A stretch of 32,000 bases of DNA from Fastidiosibacter lacustris (GTDB lineage Bacteria; Pseudomonadota; Gammaproteobacteria; Francisellales; Francisellaceae): assembly GCF_003428155.1 (NCBI RefSeq), contig NZ_QLIR01000001.1, positions 224,558 through 256,557 of the forward strand. Reading direction: 5' to 3'. The notes under the pieces were generated by a model, which worked only from the letters and a program-made list of their open reading frames with translations, searched no databases and was not told the origin of the DNA. A program made the translations under genes and the position numbers. Positions 24,594 through 32,000 of this stretch are shown in pieces. How positions within the stretch are numbered: the first letter of the stretch is position 1; every line of letters starts with the position of its first letter.

Positions 24594-26871
24594 ATGGAAA
24601 ATATTAGAAATTATTATGCTCACTCAGGAAACTTGATGGACAAATCAGATTGGCAGCTATTATCTGATCATTTGCAAACGGTGGCTGATATAGCTTGGCA
24701 TAATGCACGCTATACTGGTTGCGAAGGACTTGCTGCTTTGGCTGGTTTGCTCCATGACTTAGGAAAATATACCAAAGAGTTTCAAGCACGTTTGGAAGGT
24801 TCAAGCAGAAAAGTTGATCATGCAACTGCGGGAGCAAAAATTGCAGCAGAAATTTTGCCAGATAAGTTGTTGAACGGTTTCCCTTTCTTTAAGTTAATTG
24901 CCTATGCAATCGCGGGACACCATGCAGGGCTTGCTAATGGCATAGATGAGGGTGATGGTAGAAGCTGTTTAAAGGATCGCTTAAGTCAAAACTTTGGCAA
25001 AGAATTATGTGTATTGGATGAGTTAGCATGGAAAAGTGCATTGCAACTACCATCAAGAGAATCTCTTACACTAAAGATTAAACTACATCCAGATACTGAC
25101 TTTCATGGCTTTCAATATGCTTTTTTGATTCGCATGATTTTTTCTTGTTTGGTCGATGCTGATTTTATCGATACAGATAGATTTTACAAAAAACTTAAAA
25201 ATAAACCTTGGTTAAGAGGTGAATATCCACACTTAAACGAACTTAAAATTCAACTGGATGATTATTTGGTAAGAAAACAGGAGGGGTGTGAAGATACTTT
25301 TGTTAATCAATTGCGTCATGAAATTCTTTTAAACGCTAGAAAAAAAGCACAATTATCTCCAGGATTATTTAGTCTAACCGTGCCGACAGGTGGTGGTAAA
25401 ACACTGACATCGATGGCGTTTGCTTTAGACCATGCTTTGGCACATAACATGCGCCGAGTGATCTATGTTATTCCTTTTACCAGTATTATCGAACAGAATG
25501 CAAAAGTTTTTAGAGAAGTTTTTGGTGATTTGGGAGAGTCTGCCGTTTTGGAACACCATAGCAATTTTAATGATCGCACAATTACAAATGAAGAAACTCA
25601 AGATAAGCTTAAATTGGCGATGGAAAATTGGGATATGTCTGTGATAGTAACAACTGCGGTTCAATTTTTTGAATCGCTGTTTGCGGATCGTCCTTCACGC
25701 TGCCGAAAATTGCATAATATTACAGAAAGTGTGATTATCTTGGATGAAGCACAAACGCTACCACTAAAATTTTTGCGCCCTGTGATGGCGGTAATTGATG
25801 AGTTAGCTCGAAATTATCATTGTTCAGTTGTTCTTTGTACGGCAACACAACCTGCTTTATGTCAACCAGATTTTGACAAGGGATTTGTTAATGTCAGAGA
25901 AATTGCCCCTAATCCAAGTAAGTTATTTGACGATTTAAGCTTGGTTAGTATAAGCCATTTAGGTGAATTGACAGACGATGAAATTTTAGCTCGTATGATA
26001 GATAATGAGCAAATTTTAACAATCGTCAATAATCGTCGTCATGCTCAATCGTTGTTCCAATCATTGAAAGAGCGTCAAGTAGAAGGTATTTTTCATTTGA
26101 CTACACTCATGTGCGCGATACATCGCACAAAAAAGTTAGAAATCATTCGTAAAAGACTTAAAGAGAAAAAAAACCTGTCGCGTTGTCTCAAGTTCATTAA
26201 TTGAAGCAGGGGTCGATGTTGATTTTCCTTATGTAATGCGTGCTGAGGCAGGTTTAGACTCCATAGCTCAAGCTGCAGGACGCTGTAATCGTGAACGTAA
26301 AAGGGCAAAAGAAGACAGCCACGTTTGGATTTTTAAATCACCAGATTGGCAAGTTCCACCAGAGCTAAAAAGTTTAGCGGCTGGTATGCGATCAACTTTG
26401 CGTCAAAATTTTGACAATCTGCTGGGGCAGGAAGCAATTAAGACTTATTTTTCGGAAGTCTACTGGCGCAAAGGTGCTGAGTTAGATCAAAAACAGCTTT
26501 TAAAAGACTGTAGCAATCATGCAAAAAAACTGAGTTTTCCATTTCAAAATATTGCAAGAGATTTTCTTATGATTGAAAGTTGTATGCAGCCAGTATTTAT
26601 CCAGTTTGATAATGAAGCGGAGCATTTATTGAAAGAGTTGGAGGTAACGGATGATGTAAGCCGCATATTACGTAAACTACAACCTTATATAGTGCAGATT
26701 CCAAAGCAAGGGTTTGATAGTTTGGTAGCTACTAATGCCGTACAAACGGTGGCGCCTTATCGATTTCAAGAACAGTTTTGGGTACTGATCAATCGTGATA
26801 TATATGATGATGAATGTGGTATCAGTTGGGATAATCCAACTTTTATGAAGGCTGAGAGTTCCATCTTTTGA
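24594..26871 (+). pseudogene. cas3: Type I-C Cas3 (HD nuclease + SF2 helicase), split by a +1 frameshift in an A8 run
   Basis: ORF 24594-26204 carries the HD motifs (LHDLGK, DHATAGA), helicase motif I TVPTGGGKT and motif II ILDEAQ. ORF 26236-26871, whose frame is open from 26140, continues with CRVVSSSLIEAGVDVDF and motif VI QAAGRCNRE. Removing one A from 26166-26173 joins the two as ...RLKEKK-TCRVVSS.... Confidence 0.9.
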
Positions 26872-26886
26872 GAACAATCAAAAGAA
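26862..26886 (-). promoter_or_regulatory. Predicted Cascade binding site: TTC PAM plus a 22-nt partial protospacer for the mini-array pseudo-spacer
   Basis: The minus strand reads TTC|TTTTGATTGTTCTCAAAAGATG. The pseudo-spacer is TTTTGTTTGTTATCAAATGATG.... They are identical at positions 1-22 except 6, 12 and 18. The site overlaps the cas3 stop codon (26869-26871). Its PAM edge is 7 bp upstream of the -35 hexamer at 26894. Confidence 0.7.
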
Positions 26887-26893
26887 AAAATAT

Positions 26894-26922
26894 TTGACTT
26901 AACTTATGTTTGAATTTAGAAT
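26894..26922 (+). promoter_or_regulatory. Sigma70-type promoter TTGACT-17 nt-TAGAAT
   Basis: -35 TTGACT (26894-26899), an exactly 17-nt spacer, and -10 TAGAAT (26917-26922). An A-rich UP-like tract (26880-26893) lies upstream. The promoter points toward the small ORF, the mini-array and cas5. Confidence 0.55.
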
Positions 26923-26957
26923 CCTTCTTAAGGAGTTTAAGCAGCTGGAAGTGAAAC

Positions 26958-27107
26958 ATGAAAAATTGTTGGGCGATCCATATTGAAAAAAATGAGAGTG
27001 GGAAGCTGATATTAAAATTTGGTGGACAGCTGCATTTTCCAGTAAAAACTGTAGGATGGAGTTTTGCTGCACTTTTAGTTGTAGTGGTGGGAAAGTTCTT
27101 TTTTTGA
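26958..27107 (+). CDS. Hypothetical 49-aa peptide with a hydrophobic C-terminal segment (candidate small membrane toxin or leader peptide)
   Basis: ATG at 26958 is preceded by GGAAG (26946-26950). Hand translation: MKNCWAIHIEKNESGKLILKFGGQLHFPVKTVGWSFAALLVVVVGKFFF, ending at TGA 27105-27107. It is too short for the supplied ORF track. It lies between the promoter and the mini-array. No homology is claimed. Confidence 0.4.
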   Translation: MKNCWAIHIEKNESGKLILKFGGQLHFPVKTVGWSFAALLVVVVGKFFF

Positions 27108-27133
27108 ATTTTCACCTATTCATTGCGATTGTA

Positions 27134-27221
27134 GTCGCATCTCATGTGAATGCGTGGATTGAAACTTTTGTTTGTTATCAAATGATGAGATCGCACCCCA
27201 TGCGGGTGCGTGGATAAGGAG
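27134..27221 (+). CRISPR. Degenerate two-repeat type I-C mini-array (creA/CreR-like): psiR1, a 24-nt pseudo-spacer, psiR2
   Basis: psiR1 (27134-27165) is GTCGCATCTCATGTGAATGCGTGGATTGAAAC. The pseudo-spacer (27166-27189) is TTTTGTTTGTTATCAAATGATGAG. psiR2 (27190-27221) is ATCGCACCCCATGCGGGTGCGTGGATAAGGAG. Both repeats fit the known I-C pattern GTCGC-hairpin-GCGTGGATTGAAAC and are 21/32 identical to each other. Confidence 0.85.
27155..27210 (+). ncRNA. Predicted mature crRNA-like RNA: 11-nt 5' handle, 24-nt guide, 21-nt 3' hairpin
   Basis: Boundaries come from applying the known Cas5d cleavage position (3' base of the repeat stem) to psiR1 and psiR2. The handle is UGGAUUGAAAC. The 3' hairpin is CGCACCC-CAUGC-GGGUGCG. 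Prediction only, with no expression data. Confidence 0.45.
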
Positions 27222-27227
27222 GCAGAG

Positions 27228-27908
27228 ATGGCTTATGGTATTAAGCTGCATGTGTGGGGAGAGTATGCTTGTTTTACCAGACCCGAAATGAAGGTGGAGC
27301 GCGTATCTTATGATGTAATTACGCCATCTGCGGCCAGAGGGATTTTGGAGGCAATTCACTGGAAACCCGCGATTTGTTGGGTGATTGATCGCATTCATGT
27401 GTTAAAACCTGTGCGTTTTGAAACGATTAGGCGAAACGAGTTAGGGAATTGCAAAATTTCTACCTCTAAAGTCAGTGGTGCAATGAAGCGTAAAAGTACT
27501 CAAGATTTATATTTTTTGATTGATGATGGAGATAATCGTCAACAAAGAGCAACGACACTTTTGCGTGATGTTGGTTATGTGGTTGAAGCACATTTTGAGT
27601 TAACTAATAAAGTAGGTAATGAAGATTCAGTTGGCAAGCATCTTGATATATTTAATCGCAGAGCGCGCAAAGGACAATATTTTCATCAGCCTTGCTTGGG
27701 AAATCGTGAATTCCCTGCTTATTTTTCGTTGATTGAGTCGGATGAGGATTTTCCTCTTTCTGAGTTAAGTCAAGAGACTAAAGATTTAGGTTGGATGTTG
27801 CATGATATTGATTTTGCCAATGCCGCGACCCCAAAATTCTTTCGCGCCAAATTAATAAATGGAGTGATTGATGTTCCGCCTTTTAGAACTTTGGGGGTGG
27901 TGCAATGA
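27228..27908 (+). CDS. cas5: Type I-C Cas5 (Cas5d/Cas5c), Cascade subunit and pre-crRNA endonuclease
   Basis: 226 aa from the ATG at 27228, which has a strong SD AAGGAGG (27216-27222) 5 nt upstream. The N-terminus MAYGIKLHVWGEYACFTRPEMKVERVSYDVITPSAARGILEAI is the canonical Cas5d start. The stop overlaps the cas8c ATG (ATGA). Confidence 0.93.
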   Translation: MAYGIKLHVWGEYACFTRPEMKVERVSYDVITPSAARGILEAIHWKPAICWVIDRIHVLKPVRFETIRRNELGNCKISTSKVSGAMKRKSTQDLYFLIDDGDNRQQRATTLLRDVGYVVEAHFELTNKVGNEDSVGKHLDIFNRRARKGQYFHQPCLGNREFPAYFSLIESDEDFPLSELSQETKDLGWMLHDIDFANAATPKFFRAKLINGVIDVPPFRTLGVVQ

Positions 27909-29731
27909 TTCTAACCGCTTTAACCCAATATTATAATCGACTGGCGAATACGGAAAAAGGTGCAAAAGTACCTGCTTATGGATTTAGTGAAGAAAAAATC
28001 GGCTATATTTTAGTGCTGTCTGAGTCAGGGGAGTTAGTGGATGTTGTGCCTAATTTCACCGATGAAAAAAAGCCCAAAGCAAAATTAATGAGCGTACCAT
28101 GCCCAGAAAAAAGAACATCAGGTATTAAGCCTAACTTTTTGTGGGATAAAACGGCATATGTTTTAGGTGTCTCACTGCCAAAAGACAAAAAAAGTGAATC
28201 AACGTTTGAGCTATCGCTACCTAATTTCGAGGCTTTTAAGAGCTATCATCTCAAATTATTAAAAAATCAAGAAGAGAAAGGTCTAAAGGCATTGTCCAAT
28301 TTTTTACAAAATTGGCAACCAGAAGAATTTGAAAGTTCATTGTGTACACCTGAAATTTTGGATGCCAACGTGATATTTCAATTGGATGGTGTTAGGCAAT
28401 ACATTCACGAGTCCCAATTGGCTAAGGCAATTTGGGCGAATCAACTGAAATCAGATGATGCATCTGATGATGCTATGTGTCTGATAACAGGTACTCAAAC
28501 GCCTATTTCAAGATTGCACCCAGCAATTAAAGGTGTCTCTGGTGGACAAAGCTCCGGAGTGTCGATTGTTTCCTTTAATAAAGAATCATTTGAATCTTTT
28601 GGCAAGAAACAAGGTGATAATGCACCAGTTTCTGTACAAGCTGCTTTTGCCTATACGACTGCCTTAAACTACCTATTACGCGACGAAAATAATCAAGTTA
28701 TCAGCTTGGGTGATACTAGCGTTGTTTTCTGGGCATTAGCTAAAAAAGAAGAACAGGCAAAAAAAGTAGAATCTTTCTTTATGATGGGGTTTAATCCGCC
28801 ATCACCTACCGATGACAGTGAAACAGTTCAATTGAATGCTGAGTTAGAGAAGTTTACTAAAGGTCGACCCTTGGCAGAGATTGATCCTGAGCTTGATCCT
28901 GACACCCAGTTCTTTATTTTGGGATTGACGCCTAATGCAGCGCGTCTTTCGATTCGTTTTTGGTTACAAACTAGTTTTGGTCAGATTCAGCAAAGACTTG
29001 CTGAGCATTTTCAAGATTTAGCCTTAGCTCCTTTACCTTGGAAAACACCACCATCTATTTGGCGTCTTTTATTACAGCTAAGTCCTCATCGTGAAGGGCA
29101 GAAAAGTAAGATAGATGATGTCCCAGTACATTTGGCTGGAGAGTTAATGCGTTCTATTTTGACGGGGCAGCGTTATCCAAGATCTATTATTGCACAAATT
29201 TTATCTAGATTTAGAGCTGATGGAGATATTGGGGGTTTAAGAATTGCTATGGTAAAAGCTGTTTTGCAAAGAGAATTTAGGAAAAATTTGATAACAGAGG
29301 AGATCCCTATGAGTTTAGATGAGTCAAATACCAATCAAGCGTATTTGCTTGGCAGGCTTTTTGCCGTGTTAGAGAATATACAGGAAAGAGCTTTGGGTGA
29401 TAAGTTGAATGCTACGATTGCTGATAAATACTATGCTTCAGCCTCAACTGTGCCATATTCAGTTTATCCGCGATTACTATCAGGAAGCAAACATCACTTG
29501 TCTAAAGTTCGCAAAGATAAACCAAAGTTAGCAGTCTATTTGGAAAATAGGCTTGGTCAAATTATGACACAATTACCAACAGAATTCCCACGCCATTTTT
29601 CTATCGAAAATCAAGGGCGTTTTTCGATTGGCTATTATCAGCAAAAGTTCACCCCCTCTAAAGAAAAAGAAGATCCAAAAGACAAAGAAGATCCAACTAA
29701 GTCTATTGATGAAACACAAGGAGTAGAATAA
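27905..29731 (+). CDS. cas8c: Type I-C large subunit Cas8c (Csd1)
   Basis: 608 aa. Sits between cas5 and cas7. The N-terminus MILTALTQYYNRL and the C-terminal AYLLGRLFAVLE region are typical of Csd1. Confidence 0.92.
   Translation: MILTALTQYYNRLANTEKGAKVPAYGFSEEKIGYILVLSESGELVDVVPNFTDEKKPKAKLMSVPCPEKRTSGIKPNFLWDKTAYVLGVSLPKDKKSESTFELSLPNFEAFKSYHLKLLKNQEEKGLKALSNFLQNWQPEEFESSLCTPEILDANVIFQLDGVRQYIHESQLAKAIWANQLKSDDASDDAMCLITGTQTPISRLHPAIKGVSGGQSSGVSIVSFNKESFESFGKKQGDNAPVSVQAAFAYTTALNYLLRDENNQVISLGDTSVVFWALAKKEEQAKKVESFFMMGFNPPSPTDDSETVQLNAELEKFTKGRPLAEIDPELDPDTQFFILGLTPNAARLSIRFWLQTSFGQIQQRLAEHFQDLALAPLPWKTPPSIWRLLLQLSPHREGQKSKIDDVPVHLAGELMRSILTGQRYPRSIIAQILSRFRADGDIGGLRIAMVKAVLQREFRKNLITEEIPMSLDESNTNQAYLLGRLFAVLENIQERALGDKLNATIADKYYASASTVPYSVYPRLLSGSKHHLSKVRKDKPKLAVYLENRLGQIMTQLPTEFPRHFSIENQGRFSIGYYQQKFTPSKEKEDPKDKEDPTKSIDETQGVE
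29309..29731 (+). CDS. cas11c: Cas11c small subunit from an internal in-frame start within cas8c
   Basis: In-frame ATG at 29309, preceded by GAGGAG (29297-29302) with 6-nt spacing. It yields 140 aa starting MSLDESNTNQAYLLGRLFAVLE. Internal translation of Cas11 from cas8c is established for type I-C. Confidence 0.6.
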   Translation: MSLDESNTNQAYLLGRLFAVLENIQERALGDKLNATIADKYYASASTVPYSVYPRLLSGSKHHLSKVRKDKPKLAVYLENRLGQIMTQLPTEFPRHFSIENQGRFSIGYYQQKFTPSKEKEDPKDKEDPTKSIDETQGVE

Positions 29732-30601
29732 ATGACTATCCAACATCGTTATGAATTTGTTTATTTTTTTGATGTCACTAATGGTAATCCAAATGGCGAT
29801 CCTGATGCAGGAAATATGCCTCGTCTTGATCCTGAATCTAGCAAAGGATTAGTGACGGATGTCAGTTTAAAACGTAAAATCCGTAACTACATTCAGTTTA
29901 GTAATGAAAATAAGCCTGGCTATGACATTTATGTGCAAGAAAAAAGTATATTAAATCAGCAGAATCAGAAAGCTTATGATGCTTTAGAAATTAAAGCAGA
30001 ACCTAAAAAGTTACCAAAAGATCAGGAAAAAGCTAAAGCTATTACTGATTGGATGTGTGCTAATTTCTTTGACGTTCGCGCTTTTGGTGCAGTCATGACA
30101 ACGGAAGTGAATTCAGGTCAGGTGCGCGGACCATTTCAGTTAGCATTTGCAAAATCAATTGATCCAATTATTCCTTTGGAGATCTCTATTACGCGAATGG
30201 CGGTGACGAATGAGAAAGATTTAGAAAAAGAACGTACGATTGGACGCAAACATATTGTGCCTTATGGTTTATATCGTGTACATGGTTTTATTTCAGCAAA
30301 ACTAGCAGAAAAAACAGGGTTTTCTGAAAGTGATTTAAGTAAATTGTGGAAAGCCTTAGAAATGATGTTTGAACACGATCATTCTGCTGCTCGTGGTGAG
30401 ATGTCAGCACGTAAGTTGATTGTATTTAAACATCAGGATATGCTAGGGAATGCTCCAGCGTACAAGTTATTTAATCGTGTTACTGTTGAGCGTGTGAAAG
30501 GTGAATTAGGTACGCCAGCCAGTGCATTTGATGATTATGTAATTCATTTGGATACGTCAGGCTTAGAGACTTTAGGAGTTGAAGCGAGAGAGCTTTTTTA
30601 A
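29732..30601 (+). CDS. cas7: Type I-C Cas7 (Csd2) backbone subunit
   Basis: 289 aa. Contains FDVTNGNPNGDPDAGNMPR and DVRAFGAVMT, which are typical Csd2/Cas7 motifs. Confidence 0.93.
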   Translation: MTIQHRYEFVYFFDVTNGNPNGDPDAGNMPRLDPESSKGLVTDVSLKRKIRNYIQFSNENKPGYDIYVQEKSILNQQNQKAYDALEIKAEPKKLPKDQEKAKAITDWMCANFFDVRAFGAVMTTEVNSGQVRGPFQLAFAKSIDPIIPLEISITRMAVTNEKDLEKERTIGRKHIVPYGLYRVHGFISAKLAEKTGFSESDLSKLWKALEMMFEHDHSAARGEMSARKLIVFKHQDMLGNAPAYKLFNRVTVERVKGELGTPASAFDDYVIHLDTSGLETLGVEARELF

Positions 30602-30608
30602 CTGTGTT

Positions 30609-31223
30609 ATGTCGGATATATTAATCTCCCTTTCCGCCCTCCAGCACTATGCCTTTTGTCCTAGGCAATGTGCGCTTATTCACAATGAGCAAGTGTGGTC
30701 AGAGAATTGGTTGACCGCTCAAGGGCAGCAATTACATCAGCGTGTTGATAGTGGCGTGCCTGAAACACGCAAAGGGATTCGTTATGAGCGAGCTGTGCGT
30801 GTTTCAGCACCTAAACTGGGCTTAGTTGGTAAGCTTGATCTTATTGAAGTGGATATTAAAACAGGTATTTGTTTTCCAGTGGAATATAAACGTGGCAAGC
30901 CAAAACAAGATCATATCGATCTTATTCAGTTATGTGCGCAAGTATTGTGCCTTGAGGAGATGCTTAAACTGAGCATTAATCATGTTGCAATGTGGTATTG
31001 GCAGACAAAGCATCGCATTGAGGTTGTATTAACGCAAAGCTTGCGTGATGAAACGCTGACTATAATTGAAAAAACAAGGATGTTACTGGAAAGTGGGATG
31101 ACTCCTAAAGCCAAATATGAGAAAAAGTGTGATGCCTGTTCATTATACGATTTGTGTAACCCAAAACTTATGTTTAAAGACAAAAGCAAAGTATATGTGA
31201 ACATGCTTTTTCAGGAGGGATAG
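30609..31223 (+). CDS. cas4: Cas4 RecB-like exonuclease
   Basis: 204 aa from the ATG at 30609. Contains LQHYAFCPRQCAL and the C-terminal Cys cluster CDACSLYDLC (Fe-S). The DxK-type core reads VGKLDLIEV..EYKRGK. Confidence 0.9.
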   Translation: MSDILISLSALQHYAFCPRQCALIHNEQVWSENWLTAQGQQLHQRVDSGVPETRKGIRYERAVRVSAPKLGLVGKLDLIEVDIKTGICFPVEYKRGKPKQDHIDLIQLCAQVLCLEEMLKLSINHVAMWYWQTKHRIEVVLTQSLRDETLTIIEKTRMLLESGMTPKAKYEKKCDACSLYDLCNPKLMFKDKSKVYVNMLFQEG

Positions 31224-31226
31224 GCA

Positions 31227-31895
31227 TTGAAAAAATTACAAAACACACTCTATATCACCAAACAAGGCGCTTATTTGCACAAGGAACGTGAGACACTGGT
31301 CATTGAAGTTGAAAAGGAAAAAGCAATGCAGTTGCCTATTCATGCAATTCAGGCGATTTATTGCTTTGGTAATGTTATGGTATCACCTTTTTTGCTGGGA
31401 TTTTGTGGTGAGAATAATGTCCATTTGGCATTTTTTACTGAATATGGTCGTTTTCTTGGGCGTTTACATGGCACACAAAGTGGTAATATCTTGTTAAGGA
31501 AAGCACAATATAAAATTGCAGAAACTGATCCTGTACCTATTGCCAGAAATATAATTGCGGCAAAGCTTAATTCTTCACGAGCGGTATTATATCGCAGGTT
31601 ACGCAATCATGGGGAAAATAAAGCGGTTGAAAATGCAGTTGAGCAAATAAGTTATACTATCAGGCGCTTGCAAAAGACAGAAACTTTGGAGGCAAATTTA
31701 GGTTTAGAAGGTGAGGCTGCCTCCGTGTATTTTAGTGTTTTTAATGAATTGATTTTATCTGCTGTACAACCTGATTTTACTTTCGATATACGTAGTCGCA
31801 GACCTCCGTTGGATCCTGTTAATGCTATGCTATCATTTTTATATAGTGTCGTTGGAAATGATATTAGAGTTCCTTCCAAACCGTATTTAATCTAG
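31227..31895 (+). pseudogene. cas1: Cas1, 3'-truncated; native sequence ends near 31866
   Basis: TTG start after AGGAGGGA. The first ~213 aa are Cas1-like (TLYITKQGAYLHKERETLVIE, PPLDPVNAMLSFLYS). The frame then runs into unrelated sequence and stops at 222 aa, whereas I-C Cas1 proteins are typically ~340 aa. The catalytic C-terminal half is absent. Confidence 0.85.
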
Positions 31896-32000
31896 CAAAA
31901 TAGCTATTTAAAAATTAAAGGTGGATATGATCAATGAGATGGGAAACGATAAACAAGTTAGCAGCAGATGAGTTTCGTCGTTTAACAGGTGTAAAAAAGC
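31867..32000 (+). mobile_element. Left end of an insertion sequence interrupting cas1; the boundary is approximate
   Basis: Cas1 similarity is lost abruptly after ...GNDIR. An AT-rich leader, the SD AAAGGTGGA and a transposase-like ORF start follow. The other IS end lies outside the window. Confidence 0.5.
31934..32000 (+). CDS. Transposase N-terminus (partial, runs off the window), HTH_Tnp_4-like as in IS5-family/DDE_Tnp_4 elements
   Basis: Hand translation gives MRWETINKLAADEFRRLTGVKK.... The L..eF+R.tGV+k pattern is typical of N-termini of this transposase class (e.g. ISFtu2-like). Only 22 codons are visible. Confidence 0.45.
   Translation, partial: MRWETINKLAADEFRRLTGVKK

Follow-up and report, generated by a model that had tools for sequence, protein, structure and literature searches.

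A guide unit in the type I-C CRISPR-Cas locus of Fastidiosibacter lacustris that is predicted to direct Cascade to a promoter ahead of a small membrane-protein gene

Introduction

Why would a type I-C CRISPR-Cas locus carry, directly before cas5c, a spacer-like sequence that matches a site at the stop codon of its own cas3? The question is raised by a 32,000-nucleotide stretch of Fastidiosibacter lacustris DNA (contig NZ_QLIR01000001.1, positions 224,558 to 256,557), here called the window, in which a preliminary description made from the sequence had noticed the match. The spacer-like sequence, or guide, lies in a mini-CRISPR that, judging from the sequence and from published type I-C homologues, very probably yields a CRISPR RNA (crRNA)-like RNA; together with Cascade, this RNA would bind a TTC-flanked site without cleaving it and would repress the adjacent promoter. 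The guide/target pair belongs to a described type I-C regulatory class, and the new element is its cargo, a small membrane protein.

Results

A guide unit outside the array and its target at the cas3 stop codon

The guide unit and its target consist of the following features.

27134..27165, plus strand: psiR1, the left repeat-like sequence GTCGCATCTCATGTGAATGCGTGGATTGAAAC, whose last 14 nt equal those of the canonical repeat
27155-27165, plus strand: predicted 11-nt 5′ handle TGGATTGAAAC, within the end of psiR1 that is identical to the canonical repeat
27166-27189, plus strand: psiS, the 24-nt pseudo-spacer TTTTGTTTGTTATCAAATGATGAG, which occurs once in the window
27190..27215, plus strand: psiR2, the right repeat-like sequence ATCGCACCCCATGCGGGTGCGTGGAT, with the canonical hairpin (7-bp stem, 5-nt loop; -12.8 kcal/mol)
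27190-27210, plus strand: predicted 21-nt 3′ handle, within psiR2
26860..26883, minus strand: target (protospacer-like) site TTTTGATTGTTCTCAAAAGATGGA, with position 1 at 26883, overlapping the last four cas3 codons and the stop codon
26884..26886, minus strand: protospacer-adjacent motif (PAM) 5′-TTC-3′ (GAA on the plus strand), which precedes the target

Is the match between guide and target more than coincidence? On re-reading of the sequence, the minus strand from 26883 to 26860 proved to be as the preliminary description had given it: the site is preceded by TTC, guide and target differ at positions 6, 12, 18, 23, and 24, and all 19 pairing positions within 1–22 are identical, leaving 6, 12, and 18 as the only mismatches in that span. 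No equally good site exists in the window, as the next best site for the guide on either strand reaches 14 of 19 and lacks TTC. A match to the 24-mer with three or fewer mismatches was found in none of 100 shuffles, and base composition predicts 2.5e-8 sites of TTC plus 19 bases on both strands of the window, in keeping with the hand estimate of about 1e-8 made earlier. The match is not due to chance.

A sister assembly (GCA_024208055.1, our locus L081) is 99.84% identical to the window, and within the module the two differ at positions 27149 and 26862 only. Position 26862 is C in the window and T in the sister, a synonymous change in cas3, so that pairing ends at guide position 22 in the window and at 21 in the sister. 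The earlier statement that pairing extends to position 22 therefore holds for the window strain and not for its sister. The guide pairs at 19 of 20 possible positions in the window and at 18 of 20 in the sister.

The array of the window strain lies beyond the window end, and the canonical repeat was taken from the array of the sister strain, which has four repeats GTCGCACCCCGCATGGGTGCGTGGATTGAAAC and three spacers of 34–35 nt. This repeat is 32 nt long, ends in ATTGAAAC, and forms a stem-loop of -12.5 kcal/mol. Tandem Repeats Finder returned no output on the sister array, though the array (L081, 10869-11100; three spacers, last repeat degenerate, …GTGGATTAAGAC) is evident on reading the sequence. 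Against spacers of 34–35 nt, psiS has 24 nt. PsiR2 is without the handle, the remainder of the repeat being supplanted by the cas5c ribosome-binding site (RBS) AAGGAGG, and the mini-CRISPR adjoins cas5c directly on its 5′ side. Judged by their sequences, the psiR1 handle and the psiR2 hairpin are the parts that a Cas5c-processed guide needs, and the mini-CRISPR has the feature expected of the crRNA-like class of regulatory RNAs, repeat-like sequences outside an array that supply a 5′ handle and a 3′ hairpin. A search of psiR1 against Rfam gave a sub-threshold match to CRISPR-DR9 alone (16.9 bits against a gathering score of 45). The second difference from the sister strain, G to A at 27149 in the window, removes one pair of the psiR1 stem and alters the fold, from -8.5 to -6.7 kcal/mol.

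Guide and target co-vary in related loci

The preliminary description had proposed that selection acts on Cascade binding and leaves every sixth guide position free, and had suggested that related loci be examined for co-variation. Loci were collected with the window Cas5c, 80 from genomes (the best 80 of at least 506 Cas5c relatives) and 80 from metagenomes, and were supplemented with loci reached through the small protein described below; the total is 166 loci, 165 related type I-C loci and the window. A guide/target pair was recorded where a handle motif lay upstream of cas5c and guide nucleotides 1–11, minus position 6, matched at 9 or more of 10 positions a TTC-flanked site past the cas3 stop codon.

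The same layout is present in 35 of the 166 loci (window counted), which give 33 distinct guide/target pairs with 18 distinct 5-nt seeds. The related targets lie 7–74 nt (median 21) beyond the last sense codon of cas3. The gap between cas3 and cas5c is 16–70 nt in most loci, ∼330–390 nt in a sizeable minority, and 1.5–4.4 kb in one group that consists mainly of Neisseria, Haemophilus, and related Pasteurellaceae. When one representative per seed is considered, the cognate seed scores 9–10 of 10 in all 18, as against none of the 306 non-cognate pairings of guide and region. In a search blind to the PAM, TTC flanked 33 of 52 seed hits, where about 1 in 64 would be expected, and at four further distinct loci reached through the small protein the best PAM-blind match was the TTC site in each case (4/4). 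Counted without regard to distinctness, these extra loci number seven, and TTC is present in all of them.

Match frequencies along the 33 pairs are 0.21 at position 6, 0.24 at position 12, 0.70–0.88 at positions 13–16, which lie outside the selection, 0.48 at position 17, and ∼0.3 from position 18 onward. To provide a null, partners were shuffled 5000 times among one representative per seed. Positions 13–17 match at 0.69, compared with a shuffled mean of 0.31, and none of the 5000 shuffles was as high; positions 6 and 12 match at 0.19, not different from the shuffled mean of 0.26. By these sequence comparisons, guide and target co-evolve in type I-C relatives while positions 6 and 12 are unconstrained, a pattern of pairing in 5-nt blocks with each sixth position unread. 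The proposal of selection on Cascade binding is supported by the relatives: across 18 seeds the pairing positions co-vary, and positions 6 and 12 stand at chance level. In most relatives pairing stops at 11–17; the window, at 22, has the longest pairing of the 33.

At one further locus with a small protein of the window type (L132, 1141-1501), the match requires one base to be skipped at guide position 6: TGTCT-A-ATGTAATT faces TGTCT-ATGTAATT, as if a single base bulged out where the guide is flipped.

The target adjoins a predicted promoter

26894..26922, plus strand: predicted sigma-70 promoter TTGACT-17 nt-TAGAAT, with 10 of 12 consensus bases

What would Cascade do at this site? Transcription is predicted to start near 26929, at a distance of 43 bp from the PAM. 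The -35 hexamer stands 11–12 nt from position 1, or 8 bp beyond the PAM, both in the window and in its nearest relatives. The relatives have rightward sigma-70 promoters (9–11 of 12 consensus bases) that overlap the target seed or begin 5–12 nt past position 1, and guides starting TGTCA are the reverse complement of a -35 element TTGACA. The target is on the minus strand in 27 of the 33 pairs and on the plus strand in 6. No terminator is predicted within 26500-27500, and a consensus scan, which a weak promoter could escape, found no promoter-like site for the guide between the small open reading frame (ORF) and psiR1. In the relatives psiR1 comes after the stop codon of the small ORF and in some overlaps it.

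Promoter occlusion is the likelier mode of repression, since the orientation of the target varies among these sequences while its proximity to a promoter is conserved; both occlusion and an elongation roadblock could act, because nothing terminates transcription arriving from cas3. The anatomy of the unit, the PAM, the co-variation of guide and target, the freedom at positions 6 and 12, and the adjacency of the promoter can all be read from the compared sequences.

We propose the following course of events. The unit at 27134-27215 would be transcribed rightward with its neighbors, and Cas5c would cut out a crRNA-like RNA of ∼56 nt (27155-27210) made up of the 11-nt handle, the 24-nt guide, and the 21-nt hairpin. 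Cascade carrying this RNA would read the TTC PAM at 26886-26884 and pair with the plus strand at 26883-26860. Bound 8 bp upstream of the -35 hexamer (promoter 26894-26922), it would block initiation and probably also read-through from cas3. The promoter would drive one transcript that contains the 49-aa ORF, the guide, and then cas5c-cas8c-cas7. A single transcript is suggested because psiR1 closely follows or overlaps the stop codon of the small ORF and no terminator is predicted, and a transcript that includes the Cascade genes would therefore form a negative feedback loop. As long as Cascade is functional, the small protein and Cascade itself would be held low; loss of Cascade, or its inhibition by an anti-CRISPR, would let the promoter fire. 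For processing, DNA binding without cleavage, and repression, this scheme follows published type I-C homologues.

The cargo is a small membrane protein

26958..27107, plus strand: small ORF of 49 aa, MKNCWAIHIEKNESGKLILKFGGQLHFPVKTVGWSFAALLVVVVGKFFF, the cargo of the module, recognized by ORF scan and homologues

The N-terminal part of the 49-aa protein is polar and is predicted to form strands, and a membrane helix lies at the C terminus. In the AlphaFold model, which is of moderate confidence (pLDDT 67), there are three short strands, and residues 29–48 form a helix. Among the gene calls returned for the sister assembly at NCBI, nothing is called at its position. A word-indexed homologue search with the protein gave no candidates. 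An exhaustive phmmer search of 1.8 billion representatives gave three small homologues, and a profile search of 5.8 billion proteins gave 18 of 46–87 aa, three named “hypothetical protein” and the others without a descriptive name. Seven window-type homologues were looked up, and each of them is located in a type I-C locus, between cas3 and cas5c.

The homologues of the window type share a short polar N terminus, the motif W.I.I.K...K..L.F.GG, and then a hydrophobic helix of ∼20 residues; they occupy the same slot in Vibrio metschnikovii, Methylotenera, Thiodiazotropha, Oleiphilus, Brachymonas, Thiomicrospira, and many metagenomes. A second family in the same slot, with an acidic N terminus, an alternating L.L.L/K motif, and a membrane helix, is found in Thauera, Azoarcus, Lysobacter, and others. 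Hidden Markov models of the families match 28 of the 166 loci (18 of the window type and 10 of the second type); small membrane proteins are the most frequent cargo in this type I-C branch. In closely related pairs, synonymous and non-synonymous codon changes are about equal in number, which indicates moderate purifying selection on the small proteins.

Searches of Pfam, PADLOC, and PHROGs gave no match for the 49-aa protein and detected no sequence similarity to small hydrophobic toxins. The lone match to a holin, for one member of the second family, had E = 0.24 and was disregarded. No match to the small protein was found by tblastn in phage and plasmid records. To see whether phages carry a mimic of the guide (ATTGAAACTTTTGNTTGTT), viral contigs were scanned; of the eight matches none had repeat-like flanks, and these were treated as chance.

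The small proteins are mostly unannotated, and screens of inserted cas-operon genes that were led by annotation would probably have missed them. From their sequences and position we tentatively suggest, at a little short of an even chance, that these ∼50-aa one-helix proteins form a class, so far overlooked, of membrane toxins or abortive effectors that Cascade represses. In contrast to classical CreTA, toxin, guide, and Cascade genes would then be on one transcript and may form a single self-limiting addiction/anti-anti-CRISPR circuit.

In a metagenome-assembled genome of the Alteromonadaceae (L002, 7923-8001), the gap between cas3 and cas5c is 78 nt and retains a pseudo-spacer 3′ end together with a hairpin like that of psiR2, remnants similar to the Vibrio metschnikovii sequence (L001). 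From the sequence, a clean deletion appears to have taken out everything from the target through the 5′ part of the guide, including the promoter, small ORF, and psiR1.

The surrounding cas genes

24594..26871, plus strand: cas3 (HD nuclease and helicase), from ORFs and Pfam matches to HD/DEAD/Cas3_HD
26869-26871, plus strand: cas3 stop codon TGA, inside the target site
27228..30601, plus strand: Cascade genes cas5c (27228-27908; ATG, with AAGGAGG ahead), cas8c (27905-29731), and cas7 (29732-30601), from Pfam
30579..31895, plus strand: adaptation genes cas4 and cas1, from ORFs and Pfam

Pfam types the locus as I-C (Cas_Cas5d, 5e-49; Cas_Csd1, 2.9e-190; Cas_Cas7, 1.8e-106; Cas4; Cas1; HD/DEAD for Cas3), and the NCBI name of the Cas8c protein is likewise type I-C. 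The gene order is cas3, cas5c, cas8c, cas7, cas4, cas1. The stretch from cas3 to cas5c measures 360 bp and holds, in order, the target with its PAM, the promoter, the 49-aa ORF, psiR1, the pseudo-spacer, psiR2, and the cas5c RBS.

In the window, cas3 is read as two frames (24594-26204 and 26236-26871) owing to one extra A in the A8 run at 26159-26166; the sister assembly has A7 at this run and a single Cas3 of 758 aa. The A8 could be a genuine frameshift, slippage, or a homopolymer sequencing error. The cas5c, cas8c, and cas7 genes are intact and equal in length to those of the sister assembly. Cas1 is truncated to 222 aa, as the sequence departs from the sister assembly after 31867. Novel sequence inside cas1 (31868-32000) opens an ORF (MRWETINKLAADEFRRLTGVKK...) that runs past the window end and resembles an insertion. 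No second copy of this sequence occurs within the window, and Pfam gave no match for the first 22 residues of the ORF; a label of insertion sequence would be unjustified.

Discussion

Safeguard or self-repression?

If Cascade represses the promoter, what is the repression for? On the sequence evidence we give about an even chance to the small protein being harmful when derepressed and the module being a safeguard of the CreTA/CRISIS type. The cargo differs between lineages and the regulatory logic is constant, and known abortive or defense cargo (two TIR proteins and a SLATT protein) is found in the same slot of other type I-C loci. The Alteromonadaceae locus lost promoter, ORF, and 5′ part of the guide together. 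The window has intact Cascade genes while its cas3 appears frameshifted and its cas1 is truncated, which fits dependence on Cascade, though as a single case.

An alternative that disputes this role of the cargo, and shares the binding mechanism, is pure autoregulation of the CreR type, in which the guide serves self-repression of Cascade and the small ORF is a harmless or otherwise useful co-regulated gene. We consider it possible, but not the likelier account. The promoter is upstream of cas5c-cas8c-cas7 with no predicted terminator between, and the apparent co-transcription of guide and cargo is more in line with a feedback loop than with toxin-antitoxin pairs of the classical kind. Autorepression by CreR is documented in types I-B, I-E, and V-A, and type I-C creA-like elements without an obvious toxin have been reported (10.1101/2023.03.10.532045); moreover, four of our loci (L043, L065, L069, and L071) have promoter and guide and no convincing ORF. 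However, type I-C loci free of the module have a gap of 16–70 nt, which suggests that the Cascade genes are co-transcribed with cas3 and do not need an internal promoter, whereas the module brings a strong promoter of its own and a conserved membrane-protein gene. The variety of the cargo (two small-protein families, DUF2188, TIR with SLATT, and a nucleoid-protein cluster) under constant logic is the pattern of CreTA and CRISIS, and the joint deletion in the Alteromonadaceae locus likewise speaks against a role in autoregulation alone.

Could Cascade instead act on polymerase that is already elongating? Bound at the cas3 stop codon, it would halt polymerase from the cas3 promoter and thereby uncouple expression of Cascade from that of Cas3, with the orientation of the strands as the key. 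Strand orientation inside a transcribed region was the emphasis of the preliminary description. The guide does pair with the non-template strand for rightward transcription, no terminator follows cas3, and 27 of the 33 pairs have this orientation. Yet the other six have the opposite orientation at the same position relative to the promoter, so that it is adjacency to the promoter, not orientation, that is conserved; the seed is the -35 hexamer itself in many loci; and the type I-C units published by Shu et al. repress isolated reporter promoters without upstream transcription (10.1101/2024.12.27.630466). As the principal mode, a roadblock is improbable.

Pairing between RNAs, with no targeting of DNA, is still less probable, indeed very much so. 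Guide and target would be an inverted repeat in one cas3-cas5c transcript, and a long-range helix would affect processing or translation. The arms are reverse complementary, share a strand at a distance of ∼280 nt, and probably share a transcript, but such a helix would explain neither the conserved TTC beside the target, nor chance-level matching exactly at positions 6 and 12 with 13–17 matched, nor the Cascade handle and Cas5c hairpin around the guide. That the match has no function, being chance or a decaying self-targeting spacer tolerated since cas3 is broken in the window strain, would suit the frameshifted cas3 and truncated cas1, but we regard it as next to negligible given the expectation of 2.5e-8 such sites and the co-varying layout in dozens of loci, some with full-length cas3 in gene calls.

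Several points weigh against repression by Cascade as we propose it, or against the safeguard. The change at 27149 in psiR1 may lower processing in the window strain. Complementarity is nearly full in the window, and the usual account of how Cas3 is avoided is limited pairing; here, to judge from the sequence, the shortness of the guide (24 nt) may have to account for the avoidance. The transcription start is a prediction, and the -35 hexamer of the window does not overlap the target and lies 8 bp past the PAM, so that occlusion hinges on the footprint of Cascade. The RBS of the small ORF, GGAAG, is weaker than the GGAG or GAGG of relatives. As no promoter of its own was found for the guide by the consensus scan, unlike in classical CreTA, supply of the antitoxin would depend on read-through from cas3 or on leaky expression; for the safeguard, this and the weak RBS count in the negative, and the toxicity is putative.

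Other cargo in the same slot

Three loci in Haemophilus and Neisseria (L057, 5935-7989; L066, 3550-5584; L049, 4652-8001) have 2–3.3 kb of cargo, flanked by a TTC target at the stop codon of cas3 on one side and by a mini-CRISPR ahead of cas5c on the other. L066 encodes two ThsB-like TIR proteins and a SLATT protein, and L057 a homologous SLATT protein and one of the TIR genes; L049 encodes a nucleoid-associated protein (NA37) and two proteins without a Pfam match. By the descriptions of Shu et al. (10.1101/2024.12.27.630466), L057 and L066 are the published Shaseng system, and L049 resembles Tudigong.

In Glaesserella and Neisseria weixii (L064, 7496-7989; L074, 7554-7989), the same guide/target layout encloses a 76-aa DUF2188 protein that matches the PADLOC defense candidate PDC-S16 (E = 8e-34); a search of passages of 10.1101/2024.12.27.630466 did not find it among the cargo systems named there. 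In the four Burkholderiales loci mentioned above (L043, L065, L069, and L071; Aquabacterium and Ramlibacter among them), the target is on the plus strand, with a promoter of up to 11 of 12 consensus bases 40–46 nt from guide position 1, and the cargo is 140–285 nt without a convincing ORF. These modules may have RNA cargo or serve pure autoregulation. Four other loci with a gap of ∼338 nt (L016, L052, L067, and L072) have a conserved ORF of ∼110 aa (...YPNGKIYVG...NYFGS...GYNRWP...) that starts at the cas3 stop codon. No mini-CRISPR was found at these loci and no Pfam match for the ORF, which is an unrelated accessory gene.

Significance

As read from its sequence, the guide/target pair would place Cascade as transcriptional repressor of its own locus in a type I-C system outside Neisseria. 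The 18 independent seeds are a clean natural data set on the guide positions that Cascade reads. Across many Proteobacteria the cargo, a tiny and unannotated membrane protein, is strictly confined to this regulatory position. Should it prove to be a toxin, it would represent a minimal effector of protein nature, through which cells would come to depend on Cascade and would be penalized when anti-CRISPRs inhibit it, and it could provide a compact part for kill switches and anti-CRISPR screens.

Comparison with known systems

How does the module compare with systems already described? The hydrophobic toxins of type I toxin-antitoxin systems, such as Hok, TisB, and Fst, are also ∼50 aa long with one membrane helix and are tightly repressed behind a strong promoter, a likeness that we take as a lead only. 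Those toxins are repressed by antisense RNA; repression in the window would be transcriptional, through Cascade.

Closer in mechanism are CreTA and CrePA, known from type I-B of Haloarcula and type I-F of Acinetobacter (PMC8501985; PMC9458426; 10.1101/2024.01.05.574328). As proposed for the window, a degenerate mini-CRISPR in the cas operon supplies a guide that directs Cascade to the promoter of an adjacent small gene, with a PAM and with limited or periodic pairing. CrePA also resembles the window in that the repressed gene encodes a protein, and its module lies in the cas3-csy1 gap. However, CreTA and CrePA toxins are tRNA-sequestering small RNAs or a KilAC-domain protein, none of them a membrane peptide, and creA and creP of CrePA each have a predicted promoter of their own, whereas guide and cargo of the window are apparently co-transcribed.

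CreR provides autorepression of Cas proteins in types I-B, I-E, and V-A, and the type I-C creA-like elements of that study are listed only (10.1101/2023.03.10.532045). Shmakov et al. (PMC10120712) describe regulatory mini-arrays of types I-E and I-F1, with mismatches at positions 6 and 12 in type I-F1, and report mini-arrays in 7% of type I-C loci. As in both of these, the guide of the window would act on a promoter that may feed effector cas genes, giving autorepression, and its spacer is shorter than normal, but CreR and the mini-arrays are described without protein-coding cargo between target and guide.

The nearest relatives are the type I-C units, mainly of Neisseria, in which, according to Shu et al. 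(10.1101/2024.12.27.630466), a solitary repeat unit stands ahead of cas5c, directly behind genes that have been inserted after cas3. A crRNA-like RNA with an 11-nt handle is formed, and units with two repeats give 57-nt products (11-nt handle, 21-nt 3′ handle). The RNA partly matches a site just ahead of the inserted genes that has the PAM TTC or TTA, TTC being the type I-C PAM used in that work; mismatches favor positions 6 and 12 and the part distal to the PAM, and transcription starts 37–46 bp downstream of the target. In E. coli expressing type I-C Cascade, promoters are repressed 4.8- to 60-fold, and derepression, for example by an anti-CRISPR, gives abortive effects. The systems are called CRISIS and comprise Nezha, Gabija, Wukong, Erlang, Tianpeng, Shaseng, Guanyin, Longwang, Tudigong, and sole-Sir2.

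The module of the window differs from these systems in several respects. Its host, Fastidiosibacter lacustris, belongs to the Thiotrichales (Gammaproteobacteria) and not to Neisseria. Pairing extends to position 22. The cargo is a single ∼50-aa protein with one helix, whereas the smallest membrane cargo described there, Longwang, has two transmembrane segments and extra helical domains; by their descriptions, all ten systems have cargos much larger than the 49-aa protein, and none resembles it. Other features are shared: the unit of the window lies just before cas5c, with the cargo between cas3 and the unit and a TTC target ahead of the cargo; mismatches fall at 6, 12, and PAM-distal positions; the predicted start lies 43 bp from the PAM, within their 37–46 bp; and the predicted RNA of 56 nt is one that in length nearly equals their 57-nt products.

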